Shown piece after piece: positions 7,385-59,580 of a DNA stretch of 64,000 bases; the stretch's first letter is position 1, and each line of letters begins with the position of its first letter. Origin of the DNA: an uncultured virus (IMG/VR IMGVR_UViG_3300040806_001404) (Duplodnaviria; Heunggongvirae; Uroviricota; Caudoviricetes); IMG/VR virus record IMGVR_UViG_3300040806_001404. One strand, given 5' to 3'. Under the pieces are notes generated by a model. It was not told where the DNA came from. It made no database searches and was given only the letters and a program-made list of their open reading frames with translations. Both the position numbers and the translations under genes were made by a program.

Positions 7385-7830
7385 TAGACTCCGCTAGTAA
7401 ATTTTCTCCACTCAATCATGTTTTTTATATTTTGGTGTCGCCATTTAACGTTTTCTAATATCTCTTTTAATGTACTACAAACTTCTTCAAGATACTGTAT
7501 TTTTGCCTGATGTTCTTGTATCACTGGGTCGGCATTATAGTAATAGTCCATATCGCCTTTTAATACAGTGAGTCCATTTAATGGGTCATAGTCCCAGCCT
7601 TTTTCATCTATCTGTTCTTTACTCATTTTGCCATTATAATGCATCCACTTGTCTTTAAGTATAACCTTAAATTCAAGTTCAGCTTTCTTGAGTTTCATAC
7701 GATTTATTGAAAGAAGTTCTAGGTATTTACCATGTAATTTAGCGGAATCTCTTGATGTCTCATCTAAATTCATTTCATCGATGATTGAGTCAGTTTTCCA
7801 CATTTCTAAGATTTGTTGCAAATTATTCAT
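7384..7830 (-). CDS. uvsY: recombination mediator UvsY
   Basis: W..DS.ID, LH.KYL and IKNMIEWRKF.SG terminus; synteny. Confidence 0.9.
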   Translation of the reverse strand: MNNLQQILEMWKTDSIIDEMNLDETSRDSAKLHGKYLELLSINRMKLKKAELEFKVILKDKWMHYNGKMSKEQIDEKGWDYDPLNGLTVLKGDMDYYYNADPVIQEHQAKIQYLEEVCSTLKEILENVKWRHQNIKNMIEWRKFTSGV

Positions 7831-15904: not shown

Positions 15905-15966
15905 CGCTTTGTCCTCTATTTTGAGTTAGTTAATAAGTTTCATAATAAGAATTATTCAATTACTAT

Positions 15967-15974
15967 TATTTATA
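15967..15974 (-). promoter_or_regulatory. T4 late promoter TATAAATA
   Basis: Exact consensus, intergenic, upstream of gp18. Confidence 0.8.
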
Positions 15975-15986
15975 ATAAAGTGTTTT

Positions 15987-20879: not shown

Positions 20880-20882
20880 GTT

Positions 20883-21676: not shown

Positions 21677-22282
21677 TTATACACTTAGTGTTCCGGAACG
21701 TAAGGCATAAAGTGTGTAGCCATATTCCTTAATTCTATTATTTGATGGGTCGGTAGTTTCAAATCTTACACCATAATGTGAATTAAACCTATTATGTACT
21801 CCAGCTCCACCAATATGCGATGCTAAAGAAGTGGAAATTCTATGGGTTCCATGCCACCAAACATTTGGAAAAGCATTACCTGTACCTCGTGTTGGGTCAG
21901 AAATATTAATTGTATAATTGCCCATATAAGCGTTGAGTTCATTACCTGTTTTTAAAGCCGTAATTGGAAATCCTCTACGATTATTAAAGCTTAAATCATT
22001 ATTACTAATATCTCCATTACCTTCTCCATGAGAATAATAACCTCCATAACATCCAATTGTGTCTAGTGTATTTGCAGCACTCATTGGTGTCATAAGTAGT
22101 GCATACCCATTAACTTCAACATTATGTAATTCGATTATAAATCTACCATAACCTGCATTTCTAGCACTGGAATATTCAACATCAAAATGAGATACACTAG
22201 TACTTGTATAACCACTGCTCCAAACTACTCCAGGACCTTCTGATTTTTTAGCAGTTGTTCCGTCTGTAATATATAAAGGCAT
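21677..22282 (-). CDS. hypothetical beta-rich virion/fibre-associated protein
   Basis: 201 aa rich in G/N/Y/S; start overlaps the stop of the upstream fibre gene. Confidence 0.6.
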   Translation of the reverse strand: MPLYITDGTTAKKSEGPGVVWSSGYTSTSVSHFDVEYSSARNAGYGRFIIELHNVEVNGYALLMTPMSAANTLDTIGCYGGYYSHGEGNGDISNNDLSFNNRRGFPITALKTGNELNAYMGNYTINISDPTRGTGNAFPNVWWHGTHRISTSLASHIGGAGVHNRFNSHYGVRFETTDPSNNRIKEYGYTLYALRSGTLSV

Positions 22283-25200
22283 TAGTCTGTTACCTCCGTA
22301 AGATTAAATTTATATTTTTTACCATTTCTTCTATTAATTAAGAATAAATCATCAGCACCTTCTTGTATTGTCCAAGAACCATTTGTTCCATCAACTTCAT
22401 TGCCTTCTCTTGTATATGCATTTCCTTCCATATCCTCGCCTTCCGGTGGCATATTTGATAAGTTAAGGTCATTAGTATAGATATTTCTATAACCAGATGA
22501 AGCAGAACCTAAATCAAAAGTATTATTTACTCTTGGAAGTTGATGACCGGCTTCTGTCCAAATAGTATGGTAATCTGCCATTGTATCATTACCTATACCA
22601 AAGTTTCTATTACCGGCCCCATAAGGATTAATGCCCATTACAACTTTATAAGCACATGCTGGGTTTGCATCATTTAAAAAATCAGATTCAGTAGCACCAT
22701 TAATAAATGCCATACTTATTTCAGCGTCTGAAGTATTAGCTATTCTAAAATGACCCCAACTTGCATAAGAGTTAGAGGCTATTACTCCCATTCTACCACC
22801 ACTTACATGTAACTTTCCTGTAGGACTATCAGTTCCAATACCAACGTTGCCGAGATATGGTTGTAATACTAAATTATATGCGGCAGTAGCATTGTAGTTA
22901 CTAACATCAATATAATATGCGCCTGTACCATTATCCATAGCACCTATTCTAAGAGCATCACTTCCGGCGATATTTCCGTTAAAGTAAGCTACTGCACCAG
23001 AGACAATAGTTGCTGAATTTGTTACTGCACCACCACCCGCTCTTGATACATAAAATGGTAAACGTGCTGTCGTGTCGGCAACAAGAGCCCTTCCAGCAAC
23101 TTGAAGATTCCACGAAGGTGAAATTACTCCGATACCAACGTTGCCGTTTGTATGAATACGCATACGCTCTGTATATGATCCACCACCCATAAACTTAACA
23201 GGAGCATTTGCAGACCAGCCGTATTCTAATTCATTACTACTATTCGCCCGCATAATTGTGCGAATAGTTCCGCCAGTATCTTTAGTTCGTATCTCTAGTG
23301 CGTTATTTAGGAGTATATTACCTCCTGATATGTGCAGTTTTTCTGCTGGAGAACTTGTTCCGATACCAACGTTGCCTGAGCTATTAATTCTTATTCCTAC
23401 ATTAGAATCAGAAAAGCCTATCCCATGCAATATTTTAAATTCGTCATCCGTATCAACACCCCATGACCACCATTGGGCAGCATCATTTGAATCAGTAGAA
23501 GCAATTAAATTAAGTGCTTTTTTCGATGTGCCAACTGCACTTAATTGAGTTAATCTATCTTGTGTAGGCTCAGCACCTTTAATATGTAATGATGCATCTG
23601 CAGTACTACCTTCAGTTGCTCCTGTATTTATGATTTGCATTGAAGCATTATAGATATCAAGTTTTGAATTATTACCTACATTATTTGTTCCAATTCCAAT
23701 ACTTCCATTACTTAAATCCATTGTCAATATATTATTTGTAATAAAAGAATTTCCAGCATCATTTAATGAACCAAATTTACCAATTCCTCCATCTACAACA
23801 AAATTTAAATGTTTATCATCTGTAGAACCTGAGTAATCAATTAAATCTAAATGAGCTCCATCGCCACCATTTATTACAATCCTTGCTCTTTGACTTGTAT
23901 CTTGTACTTGTAAAACAGTGGCTGCATTATCTGTATAACTTGCCCATGAATTAGGACTATCAGTTCCAATTCCAACATTGCCTAAACTATCAATACGCAT
24001 AGCTTCTGCTGGAGTTCCTGCATGATTAGTCCAAAACACCAAATTTGTTGGATTACCACTAGCTGCTGTGTTTTCAGCATAAAGACCAACACCACCATTA
24101 AACGAAACAGTTCCACCATTACTTGAAACAGTATAAGTAGTACTTGTAGCTCCTAATCCAATTCCTGATGCCTTTGGATAAGTTCCAGTAGTGCTGTGAT
24201 TTACATTTAAAACACTACCACTATTAATAGTTCCTGCAAAGGTAGCATTTTGTGATGCATCTAGTGTAAGAGCACTAGATGCACCAGTGAAGAAACTCAT
24301 TGTATCTCCATTAACACTTACTCTATTGCCATTATTTGTTGAGCTACTATCTTCAATAATTATAGCCGCACCTGCATCTGTTGATTCAAATTTAGCAACA
24401 TAATCGTATGGTGTGGAAGTAACTAAAGGAAAAGAACCAATAGAATTGGAAAATATTCCTGTATTAGTAGTAGTTGTAAAAACGCCCGCAGAGATAGTTC
24501 CTGTTACGTCTATGCCTGTTGAGGTGGCGGTTAGTATATCGCCTGTACCATTTAAATGTATCCTGTAACTACCATCAGAAACAGCTCTGTTATACCAAGG
24601 CTGATTAGAACCTTGCTTTATACCAAACTGGTAATCTGAGCCTGTTAAATCTAATCTCTCTTCACTTGCATCCCAAAAGAACTTAGCCGTAGTTCCTGTA
24701 TCTTCGTAAAAAGAGATGTCTCCGTTGTTGGCTATGTTTAGCCTAGTATCCCCATCAGTATATAGCCTTACAGCCCCTGAGCCTGTGCCTGACTGATAAA
24801 CAACAAAATCTTCCGTTGAGTCTCCACTTACGCCAACGTACCAAGGAACAGACGATACTGCACTTTCAAAACTAATTTGAGAGCCATTGTTTGTACTATT
24901 AATAGCGATACCAGTAAGACTGGTTGTGTTTACAGCTATAGCACCATCAACAGTCAAACCATCCATTGTGGCTGTACCTGTTACATTAATATCTTTATTA
25001 AAGTCCCATTCGTCGTTAGTACCATCATAGATAATTGTGGCTGATGCTCCATCTACTGTAATTCCAGCGCCATTAGCTGCAGCCGCATTGGCTGCTCCTG
25101 ATGCTAATGTGAGATTTAAATCATCTACTGTCATTGTAGTAGAATTAATTGTAGTTGTTGTACCATCAACTTGTAAATTACCAGCGATAACGACTGTTCC

Positions 25201-25680
25201 AGTATTGTTTCCTACTGCAGCCGGGTCGATAGTAAATGTTGCTGGACCTGCTATATATCCAGTTGTTGTAATATTACCAAAGGTCGGAGTAGCAGACGTT
25301 CCTACATCTTGTCCTATTGCAATAGCACCTGATGAATATGTAACTCCAGTTCCACCAGATAAATGCGAATCTATTCTTGCATTTGTGAAATATAAATTAG
25401 TTGAGCCTTCTGTTAAATCATCTGTTGTCGCAGCTGCAATTCGAGCATCTGCTCTTGCATCCGTATAATAAAGATTAGTACTTCCTTCTGATACATCATC
25501 AGTATCAATTGAAGTTAAATTACTTGTTGATACGGTAAACGAGGTATGCAACATTGCAGCAGTAATAGTATTATCTGCAACATGGTCGCTTGTAATATAG
25601 TCATTCGGTATTTTACCAGTATTTAACTGACCATTACCATCTACTAATTGTGCTAATCTTCTGTTTATTGTATATGCCAT
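22282..25680 (-). CDS. tail fibre protein A (1132 aa)
   Basis: EGSTNLY.T.AR repeats, shared neck module, five G.VGIG boxes, C-terminal NEVDGTNGSWTIQEG..DLFLINRRNGKKYKF domain typical of marine phage fibres. Confidence 0.8.
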   Translation of the reverse strand: MAYTINRRLAQLVDGNGQLNTGKIPNDYITSDHVADNTITAAMLHTSFTVSTSNLTSIDTDDVSEGSTNLYYTDARADARIAAATTDDLTEGSTNLYFTNARIDSHLSGGTGVTYSSGAIAIGQDVGTSATPTFGNITTTGYIAGPATFTIDPAAVGNNTGTVVIAGNLQVDGTTTTINSTTMTVDDLNLTLASGAANAAAANGAGITVDGASATIIYDGTNDEWDFNKDINVTGTATMDGLTVDGAIAVNTTSLTGIAINSTNNGSQISFESAVSSVPWYVGVSGDSTEDFVVYQSGTGSGAVRLYTDGDTRLNIANNGDISFYEDTGTTAKFFWDASEERLDLTGSDYQFGIKQGSNQPWYNRAVSDGSYRIHLNGTGDILTATSTGIDVTGTISAGVFTTTTNTGIFSNSIGSFPLVTSTPYDYVAKFESTDAGAAIIIEDSSSTNNGNRVSVNGDTMSFFTGASSALTLDASQNATFAGTINSGSVLNVNHSTTGTYPKASGIGLGATSTTYTVSSNGGTVSFNGGVGLYAENTAASGNPTNLVFWTNHAGTPAEAMRIDSLGNVGIGTDSPNSWASYTDNAATVLQVQDTSQRARIVINGGDGAHLDLIDYSGSTDDKHLNFVVDGGIGKFGSLNDAGNSFITNNILTMDLSNGSIGIGTNNVGNNSKLDIYNASMQIINTGATEGSTADASLHIKGAEPTQDRLTQLSAVGTSKKALNLIASTDSNDAAQWWSWGVDTDDEFKILHGIGFSDSNVGIRINSSGNVGIGTSSPAEKLHISGGNILLNNALEIRTKDTGGTIRTIMRANSSNELEYGWSANAPVKFMGGGSYTERMRIHTNGNVGIGVISPSWNLQVAGRALVADTTARLPFYVSRAGGGAVTNSATIVSGAVAYFNGNIAGSDALRIGAMDNGTGAYYIDVSNYNATAAYNLVLQPYLGNVGIGTDSPTGKLHVSGGRMGVIASNSYASWGHFRIANTSDAEISMAFINGATESDFLNDANPACAYKVVMGINPYGAGNRNFGIGNDTMADYHTIWTEAGHQLPRVNNTFDLGSASSGYRNIYTNDLNLSNMPPEGEDMEGNAYTREGNEVDGTNGSWTIQEGADDLFLINRRNGKKYKFNLTEVTD

Positions 25681-25685
25681 TTAAC

Positions 25686-25693
25686 TATTTATC
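25686..25693 (-). promoter_or_regulatory. late promoter variant GATAAATA fused to the start codon
   Basis: GGATAAATAGTTAAATGGCA, identical to 32161-32180. Confidence 0.7.
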
Positions 25694-26042
25694 CCTCTGG
25701 TTTTTCTGGCCACACAACATCATCTAAGGATGTATATGTTTCAGTTATATCTCTTAATGCTTGACGATATGTTTGCCATGATAACCTAATGTCTTCTGGT
25801 ATATCTGAATTTTGTGTCCAATCACAACTACTCAATAACATATTTCTTTCTGCTCTTAGTCGTTTTAATTTTATGCTATTTTCAGCTGATATTCCCCATT
25901 CATCTAATTGTTCTCTTGTAGGCGGTTCTGAATCTTCATTCCATTCTAATATATTACCTCGCAAAGTTATATCTAATTCATGACCTCTGTTATTCATTAT
26001 TCCTATAAACTGTTCGTATGTTATATTTTCTATCTTAATCAT
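25689..26042 (-). CDS. tail fibre assembly chaperone
   Basis: LRAERN.LL..CDWTQ..D......WQTYRQALRDIT......DVVWPEKP. Confidence 0.85.
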   Translation of the reverse strand: MIKIENITYEQFIGIMNNRGHELDITLRGNILEWNEDSEPPTREQLDEWGISAENSIKLKRLRAERNMLLSSCDWTQNSDIPEDIRLSWQTYRQALRDITETYTSLDDVVWPEKPEG

Positions 26043-29000
26043 TAGAACGTTCCTTGTAATATTTCTGTTGCAACAAATCCATACGGTTGTACAGGATAAG
26101 CATCATCACTACCAAAACCATTAGCTACACCAATTTGAATAAATGAATTGCCGCCGGCGTGATATAATACTAACCTATATGCTATTGTTTGGCCTTCATC
26201 ACTAAAGTCTGGGTCATCAATGATACAAGAATATTTAGAAGTTGTTCTATATCTATCTTGTTGTGACATATAGGTATTAGGGTCTGTGTTGTCAGAACCA
26301 ACTCTTGGCGGCGATAATTCTATATGAGCTTGTTGTGCTCCTTGACTGAAACCATCAACTCCTAAATCACTACAATCAGTCCAAGTACCACCATTTATAC
26401 TTCTTTGCATTCTACCATATCGATATGGATTTTGATTTTGATTTCCACCATTAGCATCATCTGTCGTATTTACATTACAAAAAATATCTATTTTAAAATG
26501 ACTATTTTTACTCATAGGTGTATAAGTAGCACTTGTGCTTAATACTACAGCACCTGTAGAGGTTGTATTCATAGGTGAAGTTTGTATACCATCAATTAAA
26601 ATTCCTTTAGGGTCACGATATACAGCTTTTGTTCCATTACTATAACCAGACAATGATGATAAAGTACTCATTGACCAACCAACTGCATAGTTTTCAAGTA
26701 CATTTTGAAAACCTTGTACAAAATCAGTGACTGCTAATTCGCACCTTGCAACACCACTCGTAGTTCCTAAAAAGACTGTAACCTTACCACTAGGATTAGT
26801 TAAAAATTGTATTTCTCCTACCCATTCTTCTGGCATCGTTCCTTGAACAGTTGTATTATAAAAATTATTTTCGCCAGAATAGCAACCTAAAACCATATCA
26901 ATGGCGCCACCATTATTTGAGTTATACCAATATCCTACAACTCTAAATGAAAACATATTAGCATTACCGGATTGGTTATGGCCAGGTATATTTGTATGAA
27001 TAGCTACACCGGTATCAGAAGATGAATAAAAACTGCCAGTACATAAATGAGTATAAAAATTAGTTCCAGAATCTGTTGAAGAATGAATAGGCTTCTGCAC
27101 ATCAACTACTCGTGTAGGTTGTAAACTAATATCCATGCCTGTATTTTGTGCTTCTATTACGAAATGTGATTCTTGATTAAGTTCAACAGATTTACTAGTA
27201 GATGTATTTTGTAATCTAAGTGTTGCAGTGCCAGCTTTTTCTATTTCTAGTCCTTCGCCAGCTGTAAAACTAGCCGCACCACCACTTCCAATTTTAAGGT
27301 TTCCATCATAATACATTCCGGGATTTCCACCACCTCCACCATACCATCGATATGACCCTTGGTTTGTGTTAAAGAATGCATAGTTAGAAGCATTAGAACT
27401 TATTCCTGTATTAAAAAATCCACCATCTTGACACACATATTGAGTGTATGTTTCAGCTGCAGAATCTTCGTTTTCCAGTCTTATTAATAAAGCTCCGGAA
27501 TCATGTTTAATGTGTAATTTTTCACTAGGATTAGTTTCACCAATACCAACATTACCGTCATACCTAAGTGTTAATTTTTCTTGTCTAATATTACCAGCTT
27601 CAGTTACATAGAAATGTAAATTTCCATCTTCAGAGCTATTAGTATTATCAACTATACTAGCACCTATTCCACCATATTCTATTTTTGTATCTGAACTATT
27701 TTTTAAAGAGAAATGAAGATTCGAACCACCACCAACTGTATTATGAGCCATGTGCAAATCTAAAATACCATATTCTTGAGATGCCCCAGTATAATTAGAC
27801 TTTGTTATAACAAATGGAACTGGTGTATTGGACCCTGTATGCTCAAACAACGTTTGTTCAGCGCCATTACCCACATCAACATAAAACGCATTATTAGTTG
27901 CACCGTTATTATTAACTACAAAAAGCGCCTGTGGGTTGTCTTCATTAATACCAACATAACCATTAGACTTAATTACTATTTTATCACTATATACTGCACT
28001 AGCATATCTTGTAATTCTAAAGGTATCATCACCTTTAACTGTATATAATCCCCATGCATTTGAGGTGTCATATTCTTGTAAATGAATTCCAGTATTAGTA
28101 TCATAAGGAGCTTTAACTGTAAGTGTAGCATTATCTAATGGTGTTGTACCAATAGCAACTTTGCCCGATGAGTCGATGGTCATACGAGCGAGTCTGCCAT
28201 CAGTGTTTGATGTGGCAAAAACTATAGGTGAACTAGCAGTATTGGCATTTCCAAAAATTTGCGACTCAATTCTAAACTCATTAGAATTGTCATATATTCT
28301 ATATACGTTATTCCCTGATGAGTAATTTTCGGAAACATAAAGACCCGTACCATTTGTTCTTACAGCACCTTCAACATCTAACTTAAAGGCTGCATTAGGA
28401 CTAGTCGTTCCAATTCCAACTCTGCCAGTTGACCTAACAACCATTTTATAGCCGCCATCTGCATAAACACCCATAACAGTTGCATCATGCGCTGCTGTGG
28501 CATCTGACCTAACTAATAATCCTTGTGCGTTTGCATCTGAACCTGTGTTATATATTCTTGAAATCCATGTATCTTTATCTGCTTCTACAGTCAAACCATC
28601 AGCAACAACTGTACCTGTTACGTCTATACCAGATGCAGTAACCCTCATTCTTTCACCACCATCAACATTAAGAACCATCTCATTAGTTCCAGTGTCGTCT
28701 AATAGTAAATAATTGTTAGTGCTTTTTAACACAACACCATTTTCTGCATCAATAGTTAAACCATTACTTACGTAAGTGTCATCTGTGTAGATTTTGTTTA
28801 CAGGAGTAGAGCTAGTATTAAACCGAAGCTCATTACCTTCAGAATTAAAAAGAATATTGCCATCAACAGTCAACCCATCCATCGTGGCTGTACCTGTTAC
28901 ATTTATGTCTTTATTAAAATCCCACTCATCATTTGTTCCATCGTATGTAATAGTTGCACTTGCACCATCGACTGTTATTCCAGCACCATTTGCTGCTGCT

Positions 29001-29653
29001 GCATTTGCCGCACCACTCGCAAGAGTAATATTTAAATCATCAACTTCCAATGTGGTTGAATTAATTGTGGTTGTTGTACCATCAACCTGAAGATTACCTG
29101 CAATAACAACTGTTCCTGTATTATCGCCTACTGCGGCAGGGTCAATTGTAAATGTAGCAGGTCCTGCAATATAACCTGTGGTTGTAATATTACCAAATGT
29201 TGGTGTTGATGAAGTGGCAACATCTTGCCCTATTGATATTGCTCCACCCGATACAGTAACACCTGTACTACCAGAGATTGCTCCCTGTGCTCTTGCATTT
29301 GTGAAATATAAATTTGTTGAACCTTCTCCAATATCATCAGTATCAAGTGTGACTGAACCTCCTAATGATACAGAGTTTGAATTAACTGTTAATGAACTAT
29401 TTGTTAAACTGGCATTTGGTATGGAACCAATTTGAATGACTCCAGTACCTGAATCATAACTTAAACCACCACCAGTAACAGATACAGAACCTCTGGCTCT
29501 TGCATTTGTAAAATAAGTATTAGTACTACCTTCACTGACATTATCAGTGGTAATACTACTTAAACTAGAATGTGTTACAGCACCCGAAGCAAGATGGTCA
29601 CTTGTGACTGCTCCAGTTCCGATAACATCTGATGTGATTTTTGTTAGTGCCAT
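26042..29653 (-). CDS. tail fibre protein B (1203 aa)
   Basis: MALTKI start, neck module nearly identical in protein sequence to fibre A, G.V.IG boxes, distinct C-terminal domains. Confidence 0.8.
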   Translation of the reverse strand: MALTKITSDVIGTGAVTSDHLASGAVTHSSLSSITTDNVSEGSTNTYFTNARARGSVSVTGGGLSYDSGTGVIQIGSIPNASLTNSSLTVNSNSVSLGGSVTLDTDDIGEGSTNLYFTNARAQGAISGSTGVTVSGGAISIGQDVATSSTPTFGNITTTGYIAGPATFTIDPAAVGDNTGTVVIAGNLQVDGTTTTINSTTLEVDDLNITLASGAANAAAANGAGITVDGASATITYDGTNDEWDFNKDINVTGTATMDGLTVDGNILFNSEGNELRFNTSSTPVNKIYTDDTYVSNGLTIDAENGVVLKSTNNYLLLDDTGTNEMVLNVDGGERMRVTASGIDVTGTVVADGLTVEADKDTWISRIYNTGSDANAQGLLVRSDATAAHDATVMGVYADGGYKMVVRSTGRVGIGTTSPNAAFKLDVEGAVRTNGTGLYVSENYSSGNNVYRIYDNSNEFRIESQIFGNANTASSPIVFATSNTDGRLARMTIDSSGKVAIGTTPLDNATLTVKAPYDTNTGIHLQEYDTSNAWGLYTVKGDDTFRITRYASAVYSDKIVIKSNGYVGINEDNPQALFVVNNNGATNNAFYVDVGNGAEQTLFEHTGSNTPVPFVITKSNYTGASQEYGILDLHMAHNTVGGGSNLHFSLKNSSDTKIEYGGIGASIVDNTNSSEDGNLHFYVTEAGNIRQEKLTLRYDGNVGIGETNPSEKLHIKHDSGALLIRLENEDSAAETYTQYVCQDGGFFNTGISSNASNYAFFNTNQGSYRWYGGGGGNPGMYYDGNLKIGSGGAASFTAGEGLEIEKAGTATLRLQNTSTSKSVELNQESHFVIEAQNTGMDISLQPTRVVDVQKPIHSSTDSGTNFYTHLCTGSFYSSSDTGVAIHTNIPGHNQSGNANMFSFRVVGYWYNSNNGGAIDMVLGCYSGENNFYNTTVQGTMPEEWVGEIQFLTNPSGKVTVFLGTTSGVARCELAVTDFVQGFQNVLENYAVGWSMSTLSSLSGYSNGTKAVYRDPKGILIDGIQTSPMNTTSTGAVVLSTSATYTPMSKNSHFKIDIFCNVNTTDDANGGNQNQNPYRYGRMQRSINGGTWTDCSDLGVDGFSQGAQQAHIELSPPRVGSDNTDPNTYMSQQDRYRTTSKYSCIIDDPDFSDEGQTIAYRLVLYHAGGNSFIQIGVANGFGSDDAYPVQPYGFVATEILQGTF

Positions 29654-29658
29654 TTATC

Positions 29659-29666
29659 TATTTATA
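29659..29666 (-). promoter_or_regulatory. T4 late promoter TATAAATA
   Basis: TATAAATA-GATAA-ATG. Confidence 0.8.
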
Positions 29667-29712
29667 TCCCAGAGTTTTCATTTGCTGTTTTTTTAGCTTC
29701 TTTTATTGCCAT
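29662..29712 (-). pseudogene. 16-aa mini-ORF MAIKEAKKTANENSGI, possible deletion remnant
   Basis: AAGGA SD, ATGGCA start like neighbouring genes, stop codon embedded in the late promoter. Confidence 0.45.
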
Positions 29713-29721
29713 TGTTTATCC

Positions 29722-30048
29722 TTATGCTTCCGGTGTTATATTAAACCCGTCGGGGTATGCGTCAATTGTCGCTTCTATTTCTGCTTTCATTTCGTTTAAT
29801 CTTGTACTTCCTACTCTTGTTTCTATCCATGATTGTAAAGTTGTTTTATTAATTGAAGTTATCTCAGAAAAAGTATCAGTTGATACGCCTTGCTCTACGT
29901 TATAGTCTAACGCACCCCCTAGAGTGGCAGACTTGCCATCCTTTGTTCCTGTAATAGTCCAACCTATTTCTTGTATAAGGTCTCTTTGTTGACTTTCTAT
30001 ATTGTAAGGAACTATTTTATTTATTTTTATATTCCATGTGTATTCCAT
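29722..30048 (-). CDS. small fibre-associated protein
   Basis: 108 aa, YTW.I...I.W..TG pattern, GGAG SD, directly downstream of a fibre gene. Confidence 0.7.
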   Translation of the reverse strand: MEYTWNIKINKIVPYNIESQQRDLIQEIGWTITGTKDGKSATLGGALDYNVEQGVSTDTFSEITSINKTTLQSWIETRVGSTRLNEMKAEIEATIDAYPDGFNITPEA

Positions 30049-30057
30049 ATTTTTCTC

Positions 30058-32166
30058 CTATGATATAGTGACCGTAAGGTCTTTAAAATCTGTTTCATGG
30101 TCACTGCTAGTGTCCCCTGCTTTTGTAATTCTATAGTAAATTGAGGGGTGAATATAAGCAGGAATATCTATATCAAAGTAGAATCCTTGGTGAGATATAG
30201 TTCCATAACTAACTGAATGACTACCACTCGATCTTATAATTGTTGCTTCTGATAAAGTTATACTGTTATTAGTATACCCTGAAAGCATTGCACTACAGTA
30301 TTTTCCTTGATAACCTGATATATAAACTTCTAATTGAAACCCACCCCAAGCATTTCCTGATGTACCTGTTGGAGCAGGAACAGTTACTCTTACATTTCCA
30401 CTAAAAGTACCTGAGCTACCACTCGAGCCAAAAAACGTCCAGTAATTACTAAGATGTCCTGCATCCTTTATTCCGGCTGACGACTGAGCGCACCCATTGA
30501 TAAGTAGACCACCTTTTTTAACATGTAAACCAGCAAGATTATTAGGCACAGCACTCTCATTACCAACAGTCATGTATCTATCTGAATCAATAAGTACTGC
30601 CTGACTTCCTCCTACAGATATTCCTAACTTATCAGCAGCTGGCCAATATACACCAGTATTTTCATCATCATATGAAGCAAGACCCGGTAGATTTGCTGCA
30701 GTATCGCCTGATGAATATTGATTTGGCCTAATTGAACCACCACTTCCTGTTCTTTTCCATTCTCCTGCAACCGTATCGTTTAGATAAAACTTCATTCTAG
30801 TTGCCGTTGTTTGGTCAGTTTCTATACGATTGTTCATCGTGGTATGAAACCCTAAACCATCTGCACCTACTTTTGCGCCATCTGAAGCAAAAGAGAGTTT
30901 TCCATTTCCTGCCGCCATTAACCAACCAGTTTGTGAACTAGCCGCATTTATAGTTATACCACCTGCATAAACACCTAAATGATTAACTGTATAAGTCCCT
31001 GCAGTATTTGGATAAACGTGCCCTACACTTACCGAACCACCAATTCCAACATTGCCTGAATTATCCAATACTAAAACATCAGTAACATTAGAAGCACTAC
31101 CACTACCACCACCATCAGCATAGTTAAAATATAGTCCTGAACCTTGAGCAACTGCAAACCAGTCTCTAGCCTGACCAGTATCGCTCCAAACTATTGCTGG
31201 TGAACTAGTATCTTGAATTACTAAAGCTGCTTGTGAATTAGCGTAACTTGTAGGATTACTCGTATTAATTCCAACGTTGCCTCCATTAAAATAACTAACA
31301 CCAGCAGTATATATTTGAGCCTTAACAGTTCCTGCGTCTGATAGTTGTAATATACCATAGTCCTCGGCACCACTACTACCTGTACCTAAAAATGCAATTT
31401 CATTAGTTGTATTATTCTTAACAATGTTAAGGGCGGCGTCTGCTCCGCTTCTATCTATTGTTAACCCTCTTCCTGGATTATCTGTTCCAATACCAACGTT
31501 GCCTGAAGAATCTATGTTAAGCCTAGTTACATAGTTTGCATTATTAGCATCGCCTTGTTGTATAGATAAATCATTACCTGCATCATTTTGTAAAAATCTA
31601 AAACCAAAAACACTTGGTTTATCAAATTCTAGGTATCCATCTAAAAGTTTTAAATTACCTGCAACATCTAATTTTTGTGAAGGATTATCTGTTCCAATAC
31701 CAACGTTGCCTGAAGAATCAACAACTAAAGTAGCTGCAGGAGCATTTTCATGCATAGAAAATGGTACAACAGAATCAGTTGTATTTGTAATATGAAACCC
31801 AACTTGACCATTTACAGTACCAGTTCCAAATAAAATATCATCAAAGCCACTTCTAGATAATGTTAATTGATTACCTGCGGCTGTAATATCAAGAGCTCCT
31901 GTTAAACTTCCACCTGCTAAAGGTAATTTAGTAGCAATACTGTTTGTTACAGTGGTACTAAAGTTTGCATCGTCACCAAGAGCTGCAGCTAATTCATTCA
32001 GTGTATTTAAAGCATCAGGTGAACTATCAACTAATGCTGAAATTTCTTGTTGAACAAAAGCAGTAGTCGCAGGAGCAGTTGTATTTGTTCCTGTACTTGC
32101 TGTTGTCAGAGTAATTTGGTCTGGTGTTATTACTCCATCTGCGATTAATTTTACTTTTGTTGCCAT
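30058..32166 (-). CDS. tail fibre protein C (702 aa)
   Basis: ATTAFVQ..ISALVDSSPDALNTLNELAAALGDDANF fibre repeat; four GNVGI boxes. Confidence 0.82.
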   Translation of the reverse strand: MATKVKLIADGVITPDQITLTTASTGTNTTAPATTAFVQQEISALVDSSPDALNTLNELAAALGDDANFSTTVTNSIATKLPLAGGSLTGALDITAAGNQLTLSRSGFDDILFGTGTVNGQVGFHITNTTDSVVPFSMHENAPAATLVVDSSGNVGIGTDNPSQKLDVAGNLKLLDGYLEFDKPSVFGFRFLQNDAGNDLSIQQGDANNANYVTRLNIDSSGNVGIGTDNPGRGLTIDRSGADAALNIVKNNTTNEIAFLGTGSSGAEDYGILQLSDAGTVKAQIYTAGVSYFNGGNVGINTSNPTSYANSQAALVIQDTSSPAIVWSDTGQARDWFAVAQGSGLYFNYADGGGSGSASNVTDVLVLDNSGNVGIGGSVSVGHVYPNTAGTYTVNHLGVYAGGITINAASSQTGWLMAAGNGKLSFASDGAKVGADGLGFHTTMNNRIETDQTTATRMKFYLNDTVAGEWKRTGSGGSIRPNQYSSGDTAANLPGLASYDDENTGVYWPAADKLGISVGGSQAVLIDSDRYMTVGNESAVPNNLAGLHVKKGGLLINGCAQSSAGIKDAGHLSNYWTFFGSSGSSGTFSGNVRVTVPAPTGTSGNAWGGFQLEVYISGYQGKYCSAMLSGYTNNSITLSEATIIRSSGSHSVSYGTISHQGFYFDIDIPAYIHPSIYYRITKAGDTSSDHETDFKDLTVTIS

Positions 32167-32171
32167 TTAAC

Positions 32172-32179
32172 TATTTATC
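32172..32179 (-). promoter_or_regulatory. late promoter variant GATAAATA fused to the start codon
   Basis: GGATAAATAGTTAAATGGCA. Confidence 0.7.
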
Positions 32180-34805
32180 CTTCCAACTCTGTTATTCTTG
32201 CTTCTGCAGCATCTAATTTTGTTTTAAGTTCTTGTATTGCTTTTGTTAAAAGAGGTACTATTTTTGAATAATCTAATTCTTGATAGATAGGTTCTTCACC
32301 CGTTCGTGTCCATGTTTGACCTTCTTTACAGAAATGTTCATACATTCCTTCAGATACTACATTCCCATCAGAATCAGTAATTGTACCTATAGGTTCCATG
32401 TGGTCTTTTTCACCTGTAACACTGCCAGGAACTATATCCATAACTTCGTGTGCTAAAAACCCTTGTTTTGTTTTTCCTGGAGCTTTAATAAAATTAAACC
32501 TAGCTGGTTTTAATTGACTAACTAAAGTAAGTGCATTCCAATCATAATCAACATTTTCTTTTAATCTATAATCTGATGTATCATTGAAAGTAATGCTTCC
32601 ATCAGCATTATGTCTAACTGTACCAACAGTACCACCACCATCAGTAAATCTAATAAAAGTAGCACTTGAAGATGGAGCTTGATCACGTAAATAACAAGTT
32701 AAAACGGTATTACCAATACCAGTTGATACATCAGAATCTTCTATAACAACAGTTCCACCAGGTGTTGAATTTCTACTAAATACAGCAGCATGAGCATATG
32801 TGTTATGGGCAAAGGAATTAGTGGCGTTTGTAAAATAGTGTGTTCCTTTTGTATCAAGAGCCATGCGAACAACTCCATTTCCCCCATCAGAATCATCTTC
32901 TTGAATAAGTCTTAATACGGAAGCATTAGAGACATTGAAGGTATCAAAACTGAATTTTTTTGCAGTTGTAGAGCCAGAAGGTGCCCTTAACGTTATTTGC
33001 CCACCTTCATTTGAAGAAGAGAAACTGTCTTTTAAACTCTCTATAGTACCGTTTACAGTAAGTTTAGAGGAAGGATTATTAGTTCCAATTCCAACGTTGC
33101 CTGATGAGTCTATTCTCATTCGTTCATAGGCACCACTATTAGCTTCGCCATTTGCTCCGCTTGATGTAGTCCAAAGAGTTAAATATCCACCATAGTCTCC
33201 ATCAGCTGCAGTTGTCTGTTTACCACCACTTACAAAACCCATCTGATATTGTCCGCTTTGAGCTGCATTACCCATATAACCAGATATTGATAGCCAACCG
33301 CCTTCAGTAACTGATGTATTTGTATTTTCTAAATTTAAATTACCATCACGTCCACGTCCATAAACACCATTAGAGTCAGACATTCTAATATCTAATTTAG
33401 CAACAGGACTGTCGGTTCCAATTCCAACGTTGCCTGAAGAATCAATACGCATTTTTTCTGCAGGAGTTCCGCCAGATGTAGCTGTTTTCCATACAAATGC
33501 ACCCCCAGTATTTGAACTACTAAAATTACCGCCACTTATTGTGCTCGTTACAACATCTCCCGTTTCACCACTTCCAAATACCCATGTATCTCCTAAATAT
33601 CCTTTTTGTGCGTAATATGCATCATTACCCGAACCTATTCTTATTCTTGCAGCACCCCCCGATTTATTTACATGTAGTGTATCGTCTGGAGTAGTTTCTC
33701 CAATTCCAACGTTACCTGATGCATCAATACGCATTCTTTCTTCTGGATTAGAGCCATTTGCTCTAGTACCAAAAGCTAAGTAAGCAGAATAGTGTCCTGA
33801 TTGTCCACTTGTATTAGCACCAAAAATATATGGACCAGTTCTATTATTTACACCGTCATGATAACCAAAAAGAATTTTACTACCAGTATTTTCTGCACCT
33901 GTGGTATCTGTTGTATCTACTAGTAACTGACTATTAAAAATACCAGCAGGACTCGCACCTTTTATATGAAGTTCAGAAGAAGGACTAGTCGTTCCAATTC
34001 CAAGCGATTCAGCACTTGCATCCCAAAATAGTTTTGCAGTCGTGCCAGTGTCTTCGTAGAAGCTGATGTCTCCGCCCTCGGCAACAGAAAGACTTTTGCT
34101 ATTATTGGTATATAAATCTATTCCTCTTGCTCCTGCTGTAGTTCCAGTCGCTAAAACTACATTGTCTGAACCATCTAAATATAAAACATTACGATTACTT
34201 GAGCCTGAATCAGTAAACTGGATATTACCATCAAAAGCAGTATTTTGAAGTAATGTACTACCTTCAACAGTCAACCCATCAGCAGTCACTGTACCTGTTA
34301 CATTTACAGATTTATTAAAATCCCATTCTGAATTTGTCTCATCCCATAATATACTTGCACTTGAACCATCAATGATAATACCACTTCCACCTGAATTTGC
34401 CTCTGTTTGTCCGGCTCCAAGTGTTATGGTTTGGTCTGTCACATCTAAGTCTGTGACATTATAAGAATTAACATTACCAGTAATATCTAAATCACCAGTG
34501 ACTGCAAGATTACCAGTAACTGTTGCACCGGTAGAAGAAGTTTGAAATACAGTTGAACCACCATAAGCAAGAGCAACTTCACCAGTTGAATCTGTAATTG
34601 TAATTGCACTTCTAGGTGTTGTACCTCTTTGTATTAATAAATTATCAGATGACCTTAATACTGAATTAGTACCATCATTAAATATTTTTAATTCAGAAGC
34701 ATCACCAAATTGTATTTGTTCGTTATCACCAAGCGTAATATTACCCTGAAGGTCAAATCCTCCTGATGTGTCTAATAAACTACTTGGTATTTTTGTTAGT
34801 GCCAT
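32175..34805 (-). CDS. tail fibre protein D with C-terminal S74-type intramolecular chaperone
   Basis: GNVGIG boxes; TSDYRLKEN...GFLAHEV...LDYSKIVPLLTKAIQEL coiled-coil end. Confidence 0.85.
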   Translation of the reverse strand: MALTKIPSSLLDTSGGFDLQGNITLGDNEQIQFGDASELKIFNDGTNSVLRSSDNLLIQRGTTPRSAITITDSTGEVALAYGGSTVFQTSSTGATVTGNLAVTGDLDITGNVNSYNVTDLDVTDQTITLGAGQTEANSGGSGIIIDGSSASILWDETNSEWDFNKSVNVTGTVTADGLTVEGSTLLQNTAFDGNIQFTDSGSSNRNVLYLDGSDNVVLATGTTAGARGIDLYTNNSKSLSVAEGGDISFYEDTGTTAKLFWDASAESLGIGTTSPSSELHIKGASPAGIFNSQLLVDTTDTTGAENTGSKILFGYHDGVNNRTGPYIFGANTSGQSGHYSAYLAFGTRANGSNPEERMRIDASGNVGIGETTPDDTLHVNKSGGAARIRIGSGNDAYYAQKGYLGDTWVFGSGETGDVVTSTISGGNFSSSNTGGAFVWKTATSGGTPAEKMRIDSSGNVGIGTDSPVAKLDIRMSDSNGVYGRGRDGNLNLENTNTSVTEGGWLSISGYMGNAAQSGQYQMGFVSGGKQTTAADGDYGGYLTLWTTSSGANGEANSGAYERMRIDSSGNVGIGTNNPSSKLTVNGTIESLKDSFSSSNEGGQITLRAPSGSTTAKKFSFDTFNVSNASVLRLIQEDDSDGGNGVVRMALDTKGTHYFTNATNSFAHNTYAHAAVFSRNSTPGGTVVIEDSDVSTGIGNTVLTCYLRDQAPSSSATFIRFTDGGGTVGTVRHNADGSITFNDTSDYRLKENVDYDWNALTLVSQLKPARFNFIKAPGKTKQGFLAHEVMDIVPGSVTGEKDHMEPIGTITDSDGNVVSEGMYEHFCKEGQTWTRTGEEPIYQELDYSKIVPLLTKAIQELKTKLDAAEARITELEG

Positions 34806-34806
34806 A

Positions 34807-37371
34807 TTATAATCCTGCCTCGTCTAATCTAGATTTTAAATCGTCTATTATTGTTTGTTGTTCTTGTATAGCTTTGGTTAAATACCCCACTAAACCTACT
34901 GTATCGACACCCATATCTTTTTGACCATCAGTACCAACTGTAATATCTGGTATTATTGCTTCAACTTCTTGAGCAATAAATCCTACTTGTGTTCTTGGAG
35001 TTTCTACTTCGCCTCCATCAGAACTTACTTCATAATCTTTTATAAAATTAAATTTTCTTACTTCTAATTGAGTTATTTTATCTAAAGCAGTATCAGTTAC
35101 AGATATTATATTTTCTTTTAAATCTCTATCAGATACATTACTTCCTGCAAAAGAGTAATTACCATTTCCGTAAACTCTTAACAATCCATCAGCACCCCAA
35201 TGAGATAAATGAATATAGTTACTATCAGAACCTGACGCATTCCATTCATATCCTAAATACCCCATATTTTTAGTGTTTGTAGATTTACCTAATCCTAAAA
35301 ATACGTCTTCTCCGGCCGTTAAATTTGGTACTTTATTTTCTTGTACATGATTAAAAGCATTACTATTCACATTATTCACAATAAGATTTGCAGTACCTGC
35401 AGTTCCAGCTGGTGTTATTTGAACTGAAGCAGAAAATGTTCCATTACTTTCTAATCTTTTGCCAAGTGCAATATTTCCATTAGTGCCAGATGAAGTATGA
35501 AATATACTAAGTTCTCTACTAGAACCAGATAAATCAATACCAAAACCTGATTTAATACTACTTCCGCCGTAAACGTAAATGATTTCACCATCAGCTTGTC
35601 CTAGATTTAAGTTTCCTCTATTACTACCATTATCATAAGTAAGAGATACCTGAGTATTACTACTTTCATCTAATATTTTATATCCAGCTATTCTATTGTT
35701 AGCTGTGTTTTGAGCAACATAATGAACATCCGCTCCACCACTATCTACAGTTGTTAGATGTAAACTACCTGTAGGACTAGTCGTTCCAATTCCAACTCTT
35801 CCTGCATCATCAACAATAAACATATCTCCTTCAGTACCACCTACCCATGTAACTCTAAATGGGTCTACTCCACTATTACCTCCAGACTTAATTGATATTC
35901 CAGGATTAGTAGCCCCACCAACTACATTAAGTTTGCTTGAAGTACTCTCTGTTCCAATACCAACATTGCCACCTTGTGGATTTATGAGAAATGGCCTGGC
36001 CCCGGAATAGTCTGTAGGGACTTTACATTGGATATATCCAGCATAGTTATTTGCACTGGCGTTAATAATTCCCATCAGAATTTCATTTCCACTCCAAGTT
36101 CTATCGGTATAGCCTATACGAGCAAAGCCTACTGGAGTAGTTCCTGAAGTCCCTGGAAGACCAAAACTAGTACTTGAAGATAAATCTAATTTTAGAGTTG
36201 GACTATTTGTTCCAATTCCAACGTTGCCATCGAAATCAATACGCATTCTTTCTTCTAATGAATTACCAAGGTTTGTGGAAAAAGCTAATCCTGTTTTATA
36301 GTCCCCAGCACTCCAACTAACCTCTGCTTTTGCATAAATTTGCGCGCCATTAATATAAGTTGAACCATCTTCTGTTCCTGAAAAATTAATTACGCCCAAA
36401 GAGTTAGTATTATTAATTGTAGAATCATTTCTAGTTAGATATAAATTTGTTACTCCAGTAGACTCAATCTCTAAATTACCTCTTGGACTATCTGTACCAA
36501 TACCTACGTTGCCTGTATCTCTAGCAATTGTTAATCTAGTTGTATCTACACTAGAACCAACACCAATTTTAAATAAATTATTTGCACCATCATATCTAAT
36601 AGATGCACCATTAACAGGACTTGCAGAAGTTCCTTCATGTAATAATATCTTTGAATCTGCAGCTGCTAAATTAGTATTAATATCTAAAGTAGCACCTGAT
36701 TGATTAACAATATTTAAATCTGTTTGAGGACTATCAGTTCCAATTCCAACTCTTTTTTGTTCTGTATCAACAAGTAAAGTTGTTGCATTTGTAGCATTAG
36801 GATATTTAATTATTATTTCGTCTGCACCTGCACCTGTAAAATTATATCTTAATGTATTATCGTTATATTGATATAATATCCATGCATCTGTATCATGAGC
36901 ATCTGTTGGTTGTAGATAAAACCCACCACCTGATTTAGCAGTTATAGCTCCTGTAGATGTAATAGCACCACTAGAGATAGTTCCTGTTAGATTAATACTT
37001 TTATTAAAGTCCCATTCATCATTGGTTTCATCCCAAAGAATACTTGCATTTGAGCCATCTACAACAATGCCTGAACCACCAGATGCTGATTCAACTTGGC
37101 CTACACCTAATGTAATTGTTTGGTCTGTGACATCTAAATCAGTCACTGAAAGAGAGTTGACATCGCCGGTAATATTTAAATCACCAGTTAAATTTAAATC
37201 ACCACCAACTGCAATATCATTGGTTAATGTTAAATTATTAAATGTTGGAGAGTCTGTAGACGCGAGTGTTTGTCCACCAAGTGCCGCAGATGTAACTACG
37301 CCTGATGAACTTACGACTTCTTGGCCTCCTACTTCGAGACCATTTTTAACTATGAAATTTTTATCTGCCAT
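34807..37371 (-). CDS. tail fibre protein E with C-terminal S74-type intramolecular chaperone
   Basis: MADKNFIVKNGL start; five (N/R)VGIGT boxes; SDRDLKENI...GFIAQEVE...LTKAIQEQQ. Confidence 0.85.
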   Translation of the reverse strand: MADKNFIVKNGLEVGGQEVVSSSGVVTSAALGGQTLASTDSPTFNNLTLTNDIAVGGDLNLTGDLNITGDVNSLSVTDLDVTDQTITLGVGQVESASGGSGIVVDGSNASILWDETNDEWDFNKSINLTGTISSGAITSTGAITAKSGGGFYLQPTDAHDTDAWILYQYNDNTLRYNFTGAGADEIIIKYPNATNATTLLVDTEQKRVGIGTDSPQTDLNIVNQSGATLDINTNLAAADSKILLHEGTSASPVNGASIRYDGANNLFKIGVGSSVDTTRLTIARDTGNVGIGTDSPRGNLEIESTGVTNLYLTRNDSTINNTNSLGVINFSGTEDGSTYINGAQIYAKAEVSWSAGDYKTGLAFSTNLGNSLEERMRIDFDGNVGIGTNSPTLKLDLSSSTSFGLPGTSGTTPVGFARIGYTDRTWSGNEILMGIINASANNYAGYIQCKVPTDYSGARPFLINPQGGNVGIGTESTSSKLNVVGGATNPGISIKSGGNSGVDPFRVTWVGGTEGDMFIVDDAGRVGIGTTSPTGSLHLTTVDSGGADVHYVAQNTANNRIAGYKILDESSNTQVSLTYDNGSNRGNLNLGQADGEIIYVYGGSSIKSGFGIDLSGSSRELSIFHTSSGTNGNIALGKRLESNGTFSASVQITPAGTAGTANLIVNNVNSNAFNHVQENKVPNLTAGEDVFLGLGKSTNTKNMGYLGYEWNASGSDSNYIHLSHWGADGLLRVYGNGNYSFAGSNVSDRDLKENIISVTDTALDKITQLEVRKFNFIKDYEVSSDGGEVETPRTQVGFIAQEVEAIIPDITVGTDGQKDMGVDTVGLVGYLTKAIQEQQTIIDDLKSRLDEAGL

Positions 37372-37403
37372 TTACCTTTTCACTCTCCAAGGTTGATATA
37401 ATC

Positions 37404-37411
37404 TATTTATA
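37404..37411 (-). promoter_or_regulatory. T4 late promoter TATAAATA
   Basis: Exact consensus overlapping the upstream stop codon. Confidence 0.78.
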
Positions 37412-40823: not shown

Positions 40824-40901
40824 TTTTGGCTTCTCCTATTTTCAATCTCTATAAAGAGTTAATTTTAAATGTTCACCCTGTATATACAGGAATTATAAAA
40901 C

Positions 40902-40909
40902 TATTTATA
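40902..40909 (-). promoter_or_regulatory. T4 late promoter TATAAATA
   Basis: Exact consensus, intergenic. Confidence 0.8.
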
Positions 40910-54518: not shown

Positions 54519-54532
54519 TCTTCTGTCCTGAT

Positions 54533-59112: not shown

Positions 59113-59113
59113 T

Positions 59114-59563: not shown

Positions 59564-59568
59564 ATATC

Positions 59569-59576: not shown

Positions 59577-59580
59577 CTCG

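Follow-up and report, generated by a model that had tools for sequence, protein, structure and literature searches.

We analysed a stretch of 64,000 nucleotides of DNA from an uncultured virus (IMG/VR record IMGVR_UViG_3300040806_001404), referred to below as the window, with a focus on five paralogous fibre genes, A to E, and on a short conserved box that recurs within them. Each of the five fibres consists of a conserved N-terminal part, four to five modules that are unrelated to each other in sequence, and a tip. The box reads (ERMRIDSS)GNVGIGT..P...L, and one box stands at the start of every module. A strict pattern, G.V[GA]I[GN], finds 19 boxes in A-E, and a relaxed pattern gives 24 matches, from which A118 and A256 were dropped as not box-like, so that 22 boxes were kept (Table 1). 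Boxes are named by gene and amino acid position, and the core coordinates of A659, D266 and E206 were calculated from amino acid positions.

The distance between neighbouring boxes is 56-135 amino acids (168-405 bp), which is a slightly wider range than the segment length of ~170-330 bp given in the initial annotation of the window. The claim made there that the segments are dissimilar stands, as the 17 module interiors are mutually unrelated (BLASTP, best E = 0.06). When the DNA is compared with itself, just matches of 23-80 nt centred on boxes are seen outside the shared N-terminal regions. Four exact repeats that had been named earlier are all present at their positions: a 38-mer (31475-31512 and 31682-31719), a 23-mer (28397, 33981 and 35773), a 24-mer (23953 and 36727) and a 22-mer (33723 and 36235). 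All boxes run in the same direction, as direct repeats on the minus strand, and no reverse complement of the 23-mer was found; neither inverted crossover sites nor a template repeat was seen among them. The Peptidase_S74 family (PF13884) was detected by Pfam in D (E = 5.8e-7) and E (E = 1e-14) and was not detected in A, B or C, for each of which Pfam gave 0 families. No gp37 or gp38 family was found by Pfam in A-E, since D and E match Peptidase_S74 only.

Table 1. Coordinates of fibre genes, box cores, shared modules and neighbouring features in the window
Feature	Position	Strand	Remarks
Fibre gene A	22282..25680	-	1132 aa; conserved N-terminal region; 5 boxes; without S74 domain
Fibre gene B	26042..29653	-	1203 aa; N-terminal region paralogous to A; 4 boxes; without S74 domain
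Fibre gene C	30058..32166	-	702 aa; 4 boxes; without S74 domain
Fibre gene D	32175..34805	-	876 aa; 4 boxes; C-terminal Peptidase_S74 chaperone aa 744-796
Fibre gene E	34807..37371	-	854 aa; 5 boxes; C-terminal Peptidase_S74 chaperone aa 747-809
A944 core	22834..22851	-	GNVGIG = GGC AAC GTT GGT ATT GGA
A846 core	23128..23145	-	
A769 core	23359..23376	-	
A659 core	23689..23706	-	degenerate GSIGIG
A567 core	23965..23982	-	
B700 core	27539..27556	-	
B565 core	27944..27961	-	GYVGIN
B497 core	28148..28165	-	GKVAIG
B410 core	28409..28426	-	GRVGIG; within 23-nt exact repeat
C371 core	31039..31056	-	
C296 core	31264..31281	-	GNVGIN
C222 core	31486..31503	-	within 38-nt exact repeat 31475-31512
C153 core	31693..31710	-	within 38-nt exact repeat 31682-31719
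D569 core	33084..33101	-	
D458 core	33417..33434	-	
D364 core	33699..33716	-	
D266 core	33993..34010	-	ESLGIG; first box of D
E524 core	35785..35802	-	GRVGIG
E468 core	35953..35970	-	
E382 core	36211..36228	-	
E287 core	36496..36513	-	
E206 core	36739..36756	-	KRVGIG
Module D266-D364	33699..34003	-	303/305 nt (99.3%) identical in L385, in gene with B-like N-terminus
Module D364-D458	33415..33718	-	78-80% identical box-to-box in L386, L387, L388
Module D458-D569	33084..33434	-	89-93% identical box-to-box in L225, L305, L306
Module E382-E468	35941..36228	-	92% identical box-to-box in L153, in gene with B/A-like N-terminus
201-aa ORF	21677..22282	-	directly 3' of A; without family match
Phage_tail_APC ORF	25689..26042	-	tail assembly chaperone; directly 3' of B; Pfam
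DUF7936 ORF	29722..30048	-	directly 3' of C; Pfam
SbcCD-like gp46/47 genes	1781-4554	-	PHROGs
Helicase	5888-7384	-	UvsW-like by position
UvsY recombination mediator	7384..7830	-	Pfam
Major head protein	8695-10020	-	PHROGs
Neck genes	19186-21632	-	PHROGs
1762-aa protein	47598-52886	-	VrlC-like, inferred from phrog_358/DUF4815
Baseplate genes	52911-63733	-	PHROGs

The box resembles a structural element of solved fibres. The accessible text of Caulton et al. 2024 (PMC10769870) describes intertwined trimeric beta-helices with a surface cleft bounded by two 'capping loops', gives the loop consensus as V-G-G/N-pi-X-X-P-X-X-X-L, and relates the fold to T5 pb1 and K1F endosialidase. In the window, 18 boxes read [VIL]G/A-I-G/N-x3-4-P, mostly followed by xxKL or xxxL, and so agree with the capping loop, although the consensus as printed in that text lacks the Ile that the boxes have between G and G/N. 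A phmmer search of the PDB, run with D only, gave 8ond_A (E = 3.3e-7), 8oml_A (1.3e-6), 8on4_A (0.001) and 8ojn_C (0.0032), and the alignments of D to these Bdellovibrio MAT fibres are centred on boxes. A homotrimer model of D355-585 scored 0.86, compared with 0.18 for the best control; of 30 solved pairs, 21 attain that mark, and of 23 single chains, none does. In this model, contact agreement is at least 86% and the predicted local distance difference test score (pLDDT) is at least 72, and the contacts of highest confidence are found just behind box D458. Note that similar complexes have already been solved, so the pass of the model shows likeness and is not proof. The matches and the model show A-E to be predicted trimeric beta-helix fibres of the S74-type/MAT-like kind, with the box as their putative capping loop. 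Since such loops would stand at the module borders, the unit that is exchanged would be one beta-helix segment between two capping loops.

Modules of D and E recur in genes of other phages that begin like a different fibre (related loci and proteins are given below with the prefixes L and P, respectively). One locus, L141, was left out as the same phage, because its A/B region is 100% identical to that of the window over 6731 nt. The gene in L385 that holds the module D266-D364 is 95.0% identical to gene B over its first 780 nt; between this part and the module is a stretch that does not align. The kinship of the L385 phage is judged from these 780 nt of B-like N-terminus alone. The same module, again with foreign flanks, is also present in contigs from two more sequencing runs of other studies, where it differs at 0 and 2 positions. 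The other three modules in Table 1 are shared box-to-box, and in L225 and L306 the module D458-D569 sits in a gene with a C-like N-terminus. In three alignments, identity begins at the upstream core (GGCAAC... or TTGGAATTGGAAC) and ends right after the downstream GG(A/T)ATTGGA.

Protein comparisons give the same picture on a larger scale. A search with D200-720 matched at least 4595 proteins at E <= 1e-10 among the best 8000 candidates, and in many of the 120 matches listed, an identity of 70-86% extends over just 20-30% of the query. In P0030, a C-like and A/B-like N-terminus is joined to a D module; in P0064, a part of D is followed by a module of A; and in P0034 and P0052, a B- or C-like N-terminus is joined to the C-terminus of D. 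D modules are thus present in C-like genes in L225, L306, P0030 and P0052. Looking for the same module in different genes had been suggested as a check in the initial annotation, and the outcome is positive, as modules of D are found in genes of B-like and C-like type and one module of E in a gene that is B/A-like. Protein D itself was found on 6 contigs. A related-locus search with the whole of D gave 13 pattern matches, none of which was confirmed, and one with the whole of E gave 6 weak loci. The window, or part of it, is contained in 22 sequencing runs as Logan assembled contigs, from which just three long pieces were used as evidence.

The positions at which similarity breaks off were then compared with those of the boxes. 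For DNA, we used 14 high-scoring segment pairs (HSPs) of at least 120 nt and at least 75% identity in box-bearing spans, which have 27 ends that are not cut by the end of a locus. As many as 22 of these ends lie at most 13 nt from a core, a zone that makes up 15.8% of the span, and 11 of the 27 are inside a core. For proteins, 42 HSPs with at least 65% identity among the matches listed have 77 internal ends, 36 of which fall inside a box span (14.6% expected) and 58 within 10 amino acids of one (29.9% expected). These counts, together with the three alignments described above, contradict a random distribution of breakpoints with respect to the boxes, an outcome that had been named in advance as one that would speak against module shuffling. 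A fixed module order, named there too, does not hold either. At sequence level, the comparisons show that complete putative beta-helix modules, cut from box to box, pass from one paralogous fibre gene to another and from phage to phage.

Conservation of A and B among relatives is limited to their N-terminal regions; in L146, for example, these are 89% identical and the remainder does not align. Orthologues of A have 2, 4, 4 or 11 matches to the relaxed pattern, which were not curated by hand, compared with 7 such matches, 5 of them curated, in A of the window. The orthologue in L146 (5379-9578; 1400 amino acids, N-terminus 89% identical) has 11 of these matches, and that in L145 (5387-9616; 1410 amino acids, N-terminus also 89% identical) has 2, while A of the window is 1132 amino acids long. 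The number of predicted modules therefore varies widely in this one orthologous gene.

Two further elements were seen upstream of the module arrays. The similarity of A (24971-24994) and B (28860-28910) to orthologues in about 12 relatives stops, in a tight cluster of ends, right after the motif EWDFNK..NVTGT..DGLTVDG, which is common to A, B, D, E and the neighbouring gene F (37407-40823). A second conserved DNA element, which lies just upstream of the first box in D (33981-34074) and A (24663-24724), encodes ISFYEDTGTTAKLFWDAS...LGIGT and is 75-91% identical over about 93 nt in about 45 metagenome or viral loci that are otherwise unlike D, a count that is biased since these loci were retrieved with the element's own peptide. 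The ISFYEDTGTTAKLFWDAS element may be the junction of the shaft and the module array.

The boxes are also alike in their codons. The codon counts reported earlier were exact: GGC encodes the first Gly in 13 of 15 GNVG copies, and GGC AAC GTT GG is read in 9 of the 15. Among all 20 boxes that have Gly in first position, 15 use GGC (p = 1.3e-10 against a background of 12%); the share of this codon among Gly codons is 10% in non-fibre genes and 12% in fibres outside boxes. The corresponding background shares are 22% and 16% for AAC and 12% and 7% for CGT. The pair GGC AAC occurs in 10 of 15 boxes, compared with 2 of 94 and 0 of 53 background Gly-Asn dipeptides (Fisher p = 7e-11).

Paralogous domains provide an internal control for how far protein constraint preserves codons. 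A and B share regions in which 171 of 223 aligned residues are identical; among 169 degenerate sites with identical residues, the codons agree at 87, with 81.5 expected by chance. The corresponding values are 34 of 69 (33.2 expected) for the paralogous domains of D and E and 46 of 86 (41.6 expected) for those of A and F. Since codon identity between paralogues is at chance level, their synonymous sites are saturated, and the likeness of the box codons is therefore not explained by protein constraint alone. The initial annotation would have been refuted by box codon usage equal to the background; instead, the box codons depart strongly both from the background and from the chance level of the paralogous domains.

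Exact runs of at least 20 nt are shared by 13 pairs of boxes, whereas 0.83 are expected from background codon use, and 0 of 1000 draws reach 13. The longest run (38 nt) exceeds the 25 +/- 3 nt obtained when codons are shuffled within columns (p = 0.004). By column of the core, the excess of same-codon pairs is 2.3x for Val, 2.0x for Ile and 1.4-1.6x for Gly, and it is 1.7-1.8x for two Ser columns. GGC, CGT and ATT are used in the boxes, but the major capsid gene favours GGT (57%), AGA (85%) and ATC (50%); AAC is the sole box codon that agrees with the preference of the capsid gene (62% there). An Akashi-type reading, namely the optimal codon at conserved sites, was rejected as a full explanation because it fits AAC only. 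Conversion biased towards guanine and cytosine (GC) was likewise rejected as a general rule: the codons of the first Gly, Asn, Arg and Thr are GC-richer, but those of Val, Ile and the other two Gly end in A or T. Note that the codon choice GGC AAC GTT G builds an 8-bp palindrome, CAACGTTG, of which the window has 9 copies, all in boxes and between 22842 and 36226, compared with 0.55 expected; AACGTT occurs 31 times in the window, compared with 12.4 expected.

The same analysis was extended to a set of related loci, with 113 non-duplicate boxes in 41 loci and a mean GC content of 36%. A codon consensus, the same as in the window, exists among these boxes across the lineage: GGC is used in 70 of 113 (background 12%), AAC in 60 of 113 (24%) and GTT in 91 of 113 (45%), and ACG encodes 38 of 76 Thr. 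Pairs of boxes were compared at six third positions, using only pairs with unrelated flanks. On average, the 269 within-locus pairs match at 4.12 of the 6 positions and the 7470 between-locus pairs at 3.10; in 500 label shuffles, this difference was never reached. As a control, pseudo-boxes were generated from the codon usage of each single locus, and the difference was then 0.03 +/- 0.10, with a maximum of 0.38. The result is similar when the window is left out (4.18 within and 3.01 between) or when a gapped flank filter is applied, which drops 183 pairs (4.07 and 3.09). In an independent set of 218 boxes among the matches listed from IMG/VR, collected by a scan with a degenerate pattern, the values are 3.67 within and 2.10 between, the codon-usage control gives a difference of 0.16 +/- 0.11, and the effect is present in each of three GC classes.

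Loci of equal GC content use unlike sets of codons in their boxes. For example, the boxes read GGA AAT GTA GGT ATW GGT five times in L083, GGT AAT GTA GGT ATA GGT three times in L069, and GGC AAC GTT GGT ATT GGA twice in L031; the window's own set, or dialect, is GGC AAC GTT GGW ATT GGA AC. Unlike sets at equal GC content argue against one universal selection at the codon level and for homogenisation inside genomes or gene pools. In summary, a box core of 18-20 nt is kept alike at synonymous sites within a genome, and the dialect differs between genomes.

All open reading frames (ORFs) of at least 100 amino acids in the window are on the minus strand, and the Pfam and PHROGs scans took in all but three of these 40 ORFs. 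According to PHROGs, the window holds the structural region of a T4-type myovirus, with gp23-, gp20-, gp18-, gp17- and gp6-like genes and SbcCD-like gp46/47; portal, sheath and terminase genes are part of this region. The fibre genes sit between the 1762-aa phrog_358/DUF4815 protein and the neck genes. With 57-63% identity, the capsid protein resembles those of phage C48C1, Methylophilales phage Melnitz, the Pelagibacter phages HTVC008M (61%) and Mosig, and cyanomyophages. These similarities place the virus as an uncultured marine T4-type myovirus, with pelagimyophages and phage Melnitz as its nearest named relatives. A megablast search of 22000-41000 against GenBank phages gave no match. A T4-type recombination set (gp46/47-like genes, helicase and UvsY) is carried in the window (PHROGs, Pfam). 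Neither reverse transcriptase nor invertase nor endonuclease families were detected by Pfam and PHROGs among the scanned ORFs of the 64-kb window, as the initial annotation had also noted for the first two.

Several observations concern the surroundings of the fibre array. The S74-free fibres A, B and C each precede a small ORF, and D and E carry the chaperone in cis, which suggests that the small ORFs encode alternative folding helpers or tip proteins; the 201-aa ORF after A is a possible separate tip or chaperone. Gene F has DUF4183 matches, a single box-like site (RLGINQSSP, near amino acid 607) and internal DNA repeats (38235-38351 and 38388-38504, 76%; 37798-37919 and 40201-40322, 70%), and its amino acids 383-560 are paralogous to the shaft of A. 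A 1431-aa fibre at 43091-47386 has Peptidase_S74 at amino acids 1335-1390 and matches long-tail-fibre distal subunits, and it has no box of the GNVGIGT type; S74 fibres with and without the box system thus coexist in one phage. Between the sheath and terminase genes, about 1.3 kb (15905-17181) is without an ORF of at least 100 amino acids.

The explanation that we favour, and that we consider probable as a whole, is that box-bounded modules are exchanged by short-homology recombination in the box cores and that the boxes are kept alike by conversion. Exchange would occur by short-homology recombination or template switching within the cores, and its agent may be the phage's own recombination-dependent replication, in which the UvsY, gp46/47-like and UvsW-like genes of the window would take part. 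Because the boxes are direct repeats in one reading phase, each crossover would be in frame and at a structural border. Gene conversion between boxes would keep them alike and hence recombinable. As a result, modules would be gained, lost and swapped, and each module may carry its own binding cleft.

A number of points weigh against this explanation. The homology offered by the boxes is mostly 11-24 nt, and 38 nt at most, and efficient T4 recombination needs longer homology than this (a value of ~50 bp was quoted in the initial annotation). That annotation had seen the boxes as crossover points for in-frame swaps; the junctions at cores and the modules in other genes, all of them seen in assembled contigs, largely support it, the act of recombination itself being deduced from these junctions. 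The DNA ends are not independent, since kin loci leave about seven distinct junction sets; some ends, 5 of the 27 for DNA and 19 of the 77 for proteins, are farther from boxes, with starts at D415-430, for example; and the conservation of the box everywhere pulls HSP ends towards boxes. Loci L305-L464 were retrieved using peptides that partly adjoin boxes, and about 200 box 'joints' in the contigs of four runs were rejected as evidence of exchange, because sides of 20-34 nt at 90% likeness amount to box-only matching. The site behind DGLTVDG is a second kind of exchange junction, which is not the GNVGIGT box. No cultured phage with a shared module was found by tblastn against GenBank phages (F, partial matches of at most 60-80%; D250-600, below 60%).

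The codon data have similar weak points. With column-shuffled codons, 6.3 pairs of boxes are expected to share runs of at least 20 nt, compared with the 13 observed (p = 0.022), and with this modest excess, linkage among synonymous sites is only moderately supported inside the window. Box columns outside the core are at or below chance for use of the same codon. In unrelated phages of higher GC content, GGC is enriched at the first Gly compared with in-frame flanks (35% vs 13%, 65% vs 26% and 76% vs 35%), and GGT at the second Gly is also enriched across GC classes; in the lowest GC class, GGC at the first Gly is not enriched (2 of 25). The enrichment of GGC in unrelated phages leaves room for a codon preference common to many genomes.

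This preference bears on an account based on structure only, according to which the capping loop fixes the box, selection on translation or mRNA fixes its codons, random illegitimate recombinants survive at domain borders, and DNA likeness is irrelevant. Such an account agrees with the place of the box as a structural element at module borders, with AAC as the favoured Asn codon of the capsid gene, with the GGC and GGT enrichment in unrelated phages, and with a same-codon excess that is confined to few columns. However, GGC, CGT, ATT and ACG are not favoured by the capsid gene, and the dialects at equal GC content and the likeness within genomes go beyond each genome's own codon usage. In addition, S74-type fibres fold from the C-terminal chaperone after synthesis, so a co-translational pause at each box is not to be expected, and we regard the structure-only account as unlikely. 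Even less credible is a history of duplication and divergence without exchange, in which the modules are tandem copies of one unit with fast-diverging interiors and the boxes are a slow remnant. It would suit the repetitive architecture, the regular box and the variation of module number among orthologues, but the 17 interiors are without residual similarity, and near-identical modules (99.3%, 92-95%) occur in otherwise unalignable genes of other phages. Moreover, given the saturation of synonymous sites in paralogues, the codons of an old remnant would not be expected to persist.

Chimeric contigs, formed when metagenome assemblers mis-join co-occurring phages at boxes, would be a concern because the relatives are all metagenome contigs and Logan contigs often stop at boxes, for example at 31504. 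We consider this extremely improbable as the source of the pattern. The exact repeats, at 38 nt or less, are below read length, and each module and flank junction falls within one read length, so that its k-mers should exist in real reads, however the two ends of the module are phased. L141 matches the A/B region of the window completely, protein D recurs on several contigs, and D266-D364 with foreign flanks recurs in L385 and in the contigs of two runs from other studies; chimeras, furthermore, would reduce rather than increase the likeness of boxes within a contig. An enzyme encoded elsewhere (a recombinase, a homing endonuclease or a retroelement) could instead act on the box with the palindrome as its site, and the restriction of CAACGTTG to boxes, together with the fact that three unusual codon choices are exactly those that build it, would be in keeping with this. 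But no candidate family is present among the scanned ORFs, in a view limited to 64 kb of the genome, the boxes are all direct repeats on one strand, and other genomes keep their boxes alike using non-palindromic sets such as GGT AAT GTA. We therefore think a dedicated enzyme very unlikely.

Returning to box-bounded exchange with conversion, a stronger form of it would hold that the box core is an evolved recombination signal and the dialect a compatibility code that channels in-frame module exchange within a pool, each genome or gene pool keeping its own dialect by gene conversion. We put this forward tentatively and consider it doubtful; the boxes may instead be homogenised as a by-product. 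If it were true, modules that each have their own ligand cleft would allow five multi-module fibres to read host surfaces in a combinatorial manner, and the locus would shuffle domains naturally, without a dedicated enzyme, under selection for evolvability. In any case, the host range of abundant marine myoviruses is set in a hypervariable fibre cluster, for which the unit, the borders and the DNA signature of change are now defined from sequence. The idea of shuffling at conserved motifs becomes a testable prediction for a second, unrelated and widespread fibre family (the at least 4595 proteins at E <= 1e-10 mentioned above). In practice, the boxes offer natural joints at which chimeric fibres could be engineered for phages that infect marine bacteria, and fibre genes of the S74/MAT box family are unsafe as single orthologous units in phylogeny or host prediction.

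Fibre variation driven by enzymes is known from the invertase switches (Gin/Cin/Min), shufflons and diversity-generating retroelements. The outcome is the same as here, namely alternative receptor-binding ends from one locus. However, those systems perform programmed switching, whereas the changes seen here are between genomes and genes over evolutionary time, the repeats are direct and not inverted, and no invertase or reverse transcriptase is in view. A closer match in genomic position is the host recognition cluster (HRC) of pelagimyophages and cyanomyophages, a hypervariable island (Zaragoza-Solas et al. 2020, PMC7029224), which in similar phages likewise has several fibre genes between a VrlC-like gene and the neck genes. 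The accessible text of that paper treats variability at the level of genes; the word 'recombination' is absent from it, and it describes no box or module junctions.

In protein architecture, the nearest systems are the S74-type/MAT fibres (Bdellovibrio Bd3182/Bd2133: 8ond, 8oml, 8on4 and 8ojn; T5 pb1, 4UW8; K1F endosialidase, 3GW6), in which the box sequence is matched and the capping loop fits. The trimer is intertwined in those fibres as well, here in the model only; D and E share the C-terminal S74 chaperone, other tips being found elsewhere, and A, B and C, each with its small following ORF, resemble the 'NS74' members. The accessible text of Caulton et al. 2024 (PMC10769870), a structural study of a bacterial predator, notes mosaicism and possible 'tip swapping'; it has 'recombination' twice and does not address motif DNA or loop exchange. 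Tips are the part that may be swapped there, whereas here modules between loops are exchanged too.

The principle of motif-guided fibre shuffling is already known from the T-even distal adhesins (Tetart/Krisch), which recombine at the His boxes of gp37 and the glycine-rich motifs of gp38 (Trojet et al. 2011, PMC3157838, citing Tetart 1996, 1998). As far as the accessible text of that paper goes, the adhesins, like the present fibres, belong to T4-type phages, and the role suggested for them is likewise the re-sorting of host-range determinants from a shared pool. However, motif and fold are not homologous, as the box is a predicted capping loop of a trimeric beta-helix and no gp37/gp38 family is present in A-E. 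In the adhesins, loops of one small domain are exchanged, whereas here whole serial domains of 56-135 amino acids and five paralogous genes of one genome are involved. Synonymous-site homogenisation and dialects are measured here, and the terms 'synonymous' and 'nucleotide level' do not occur in the accessible text of Trojet et al. A literature search, with the full text of Tetart 1996/1998 outside its scope, found no description of the GNVGIGT box or of box homogenisation. The system of the window works like the motif-mediated system of the T-even phages, but outside the gp37/gp38 gene family; what appears to be new is that serial modules are exchanged at the capping-loop box, that five paralogous genes of one genome take part, and that box DNA, as measured here, evolves in concert with codon sets specific to each genome.

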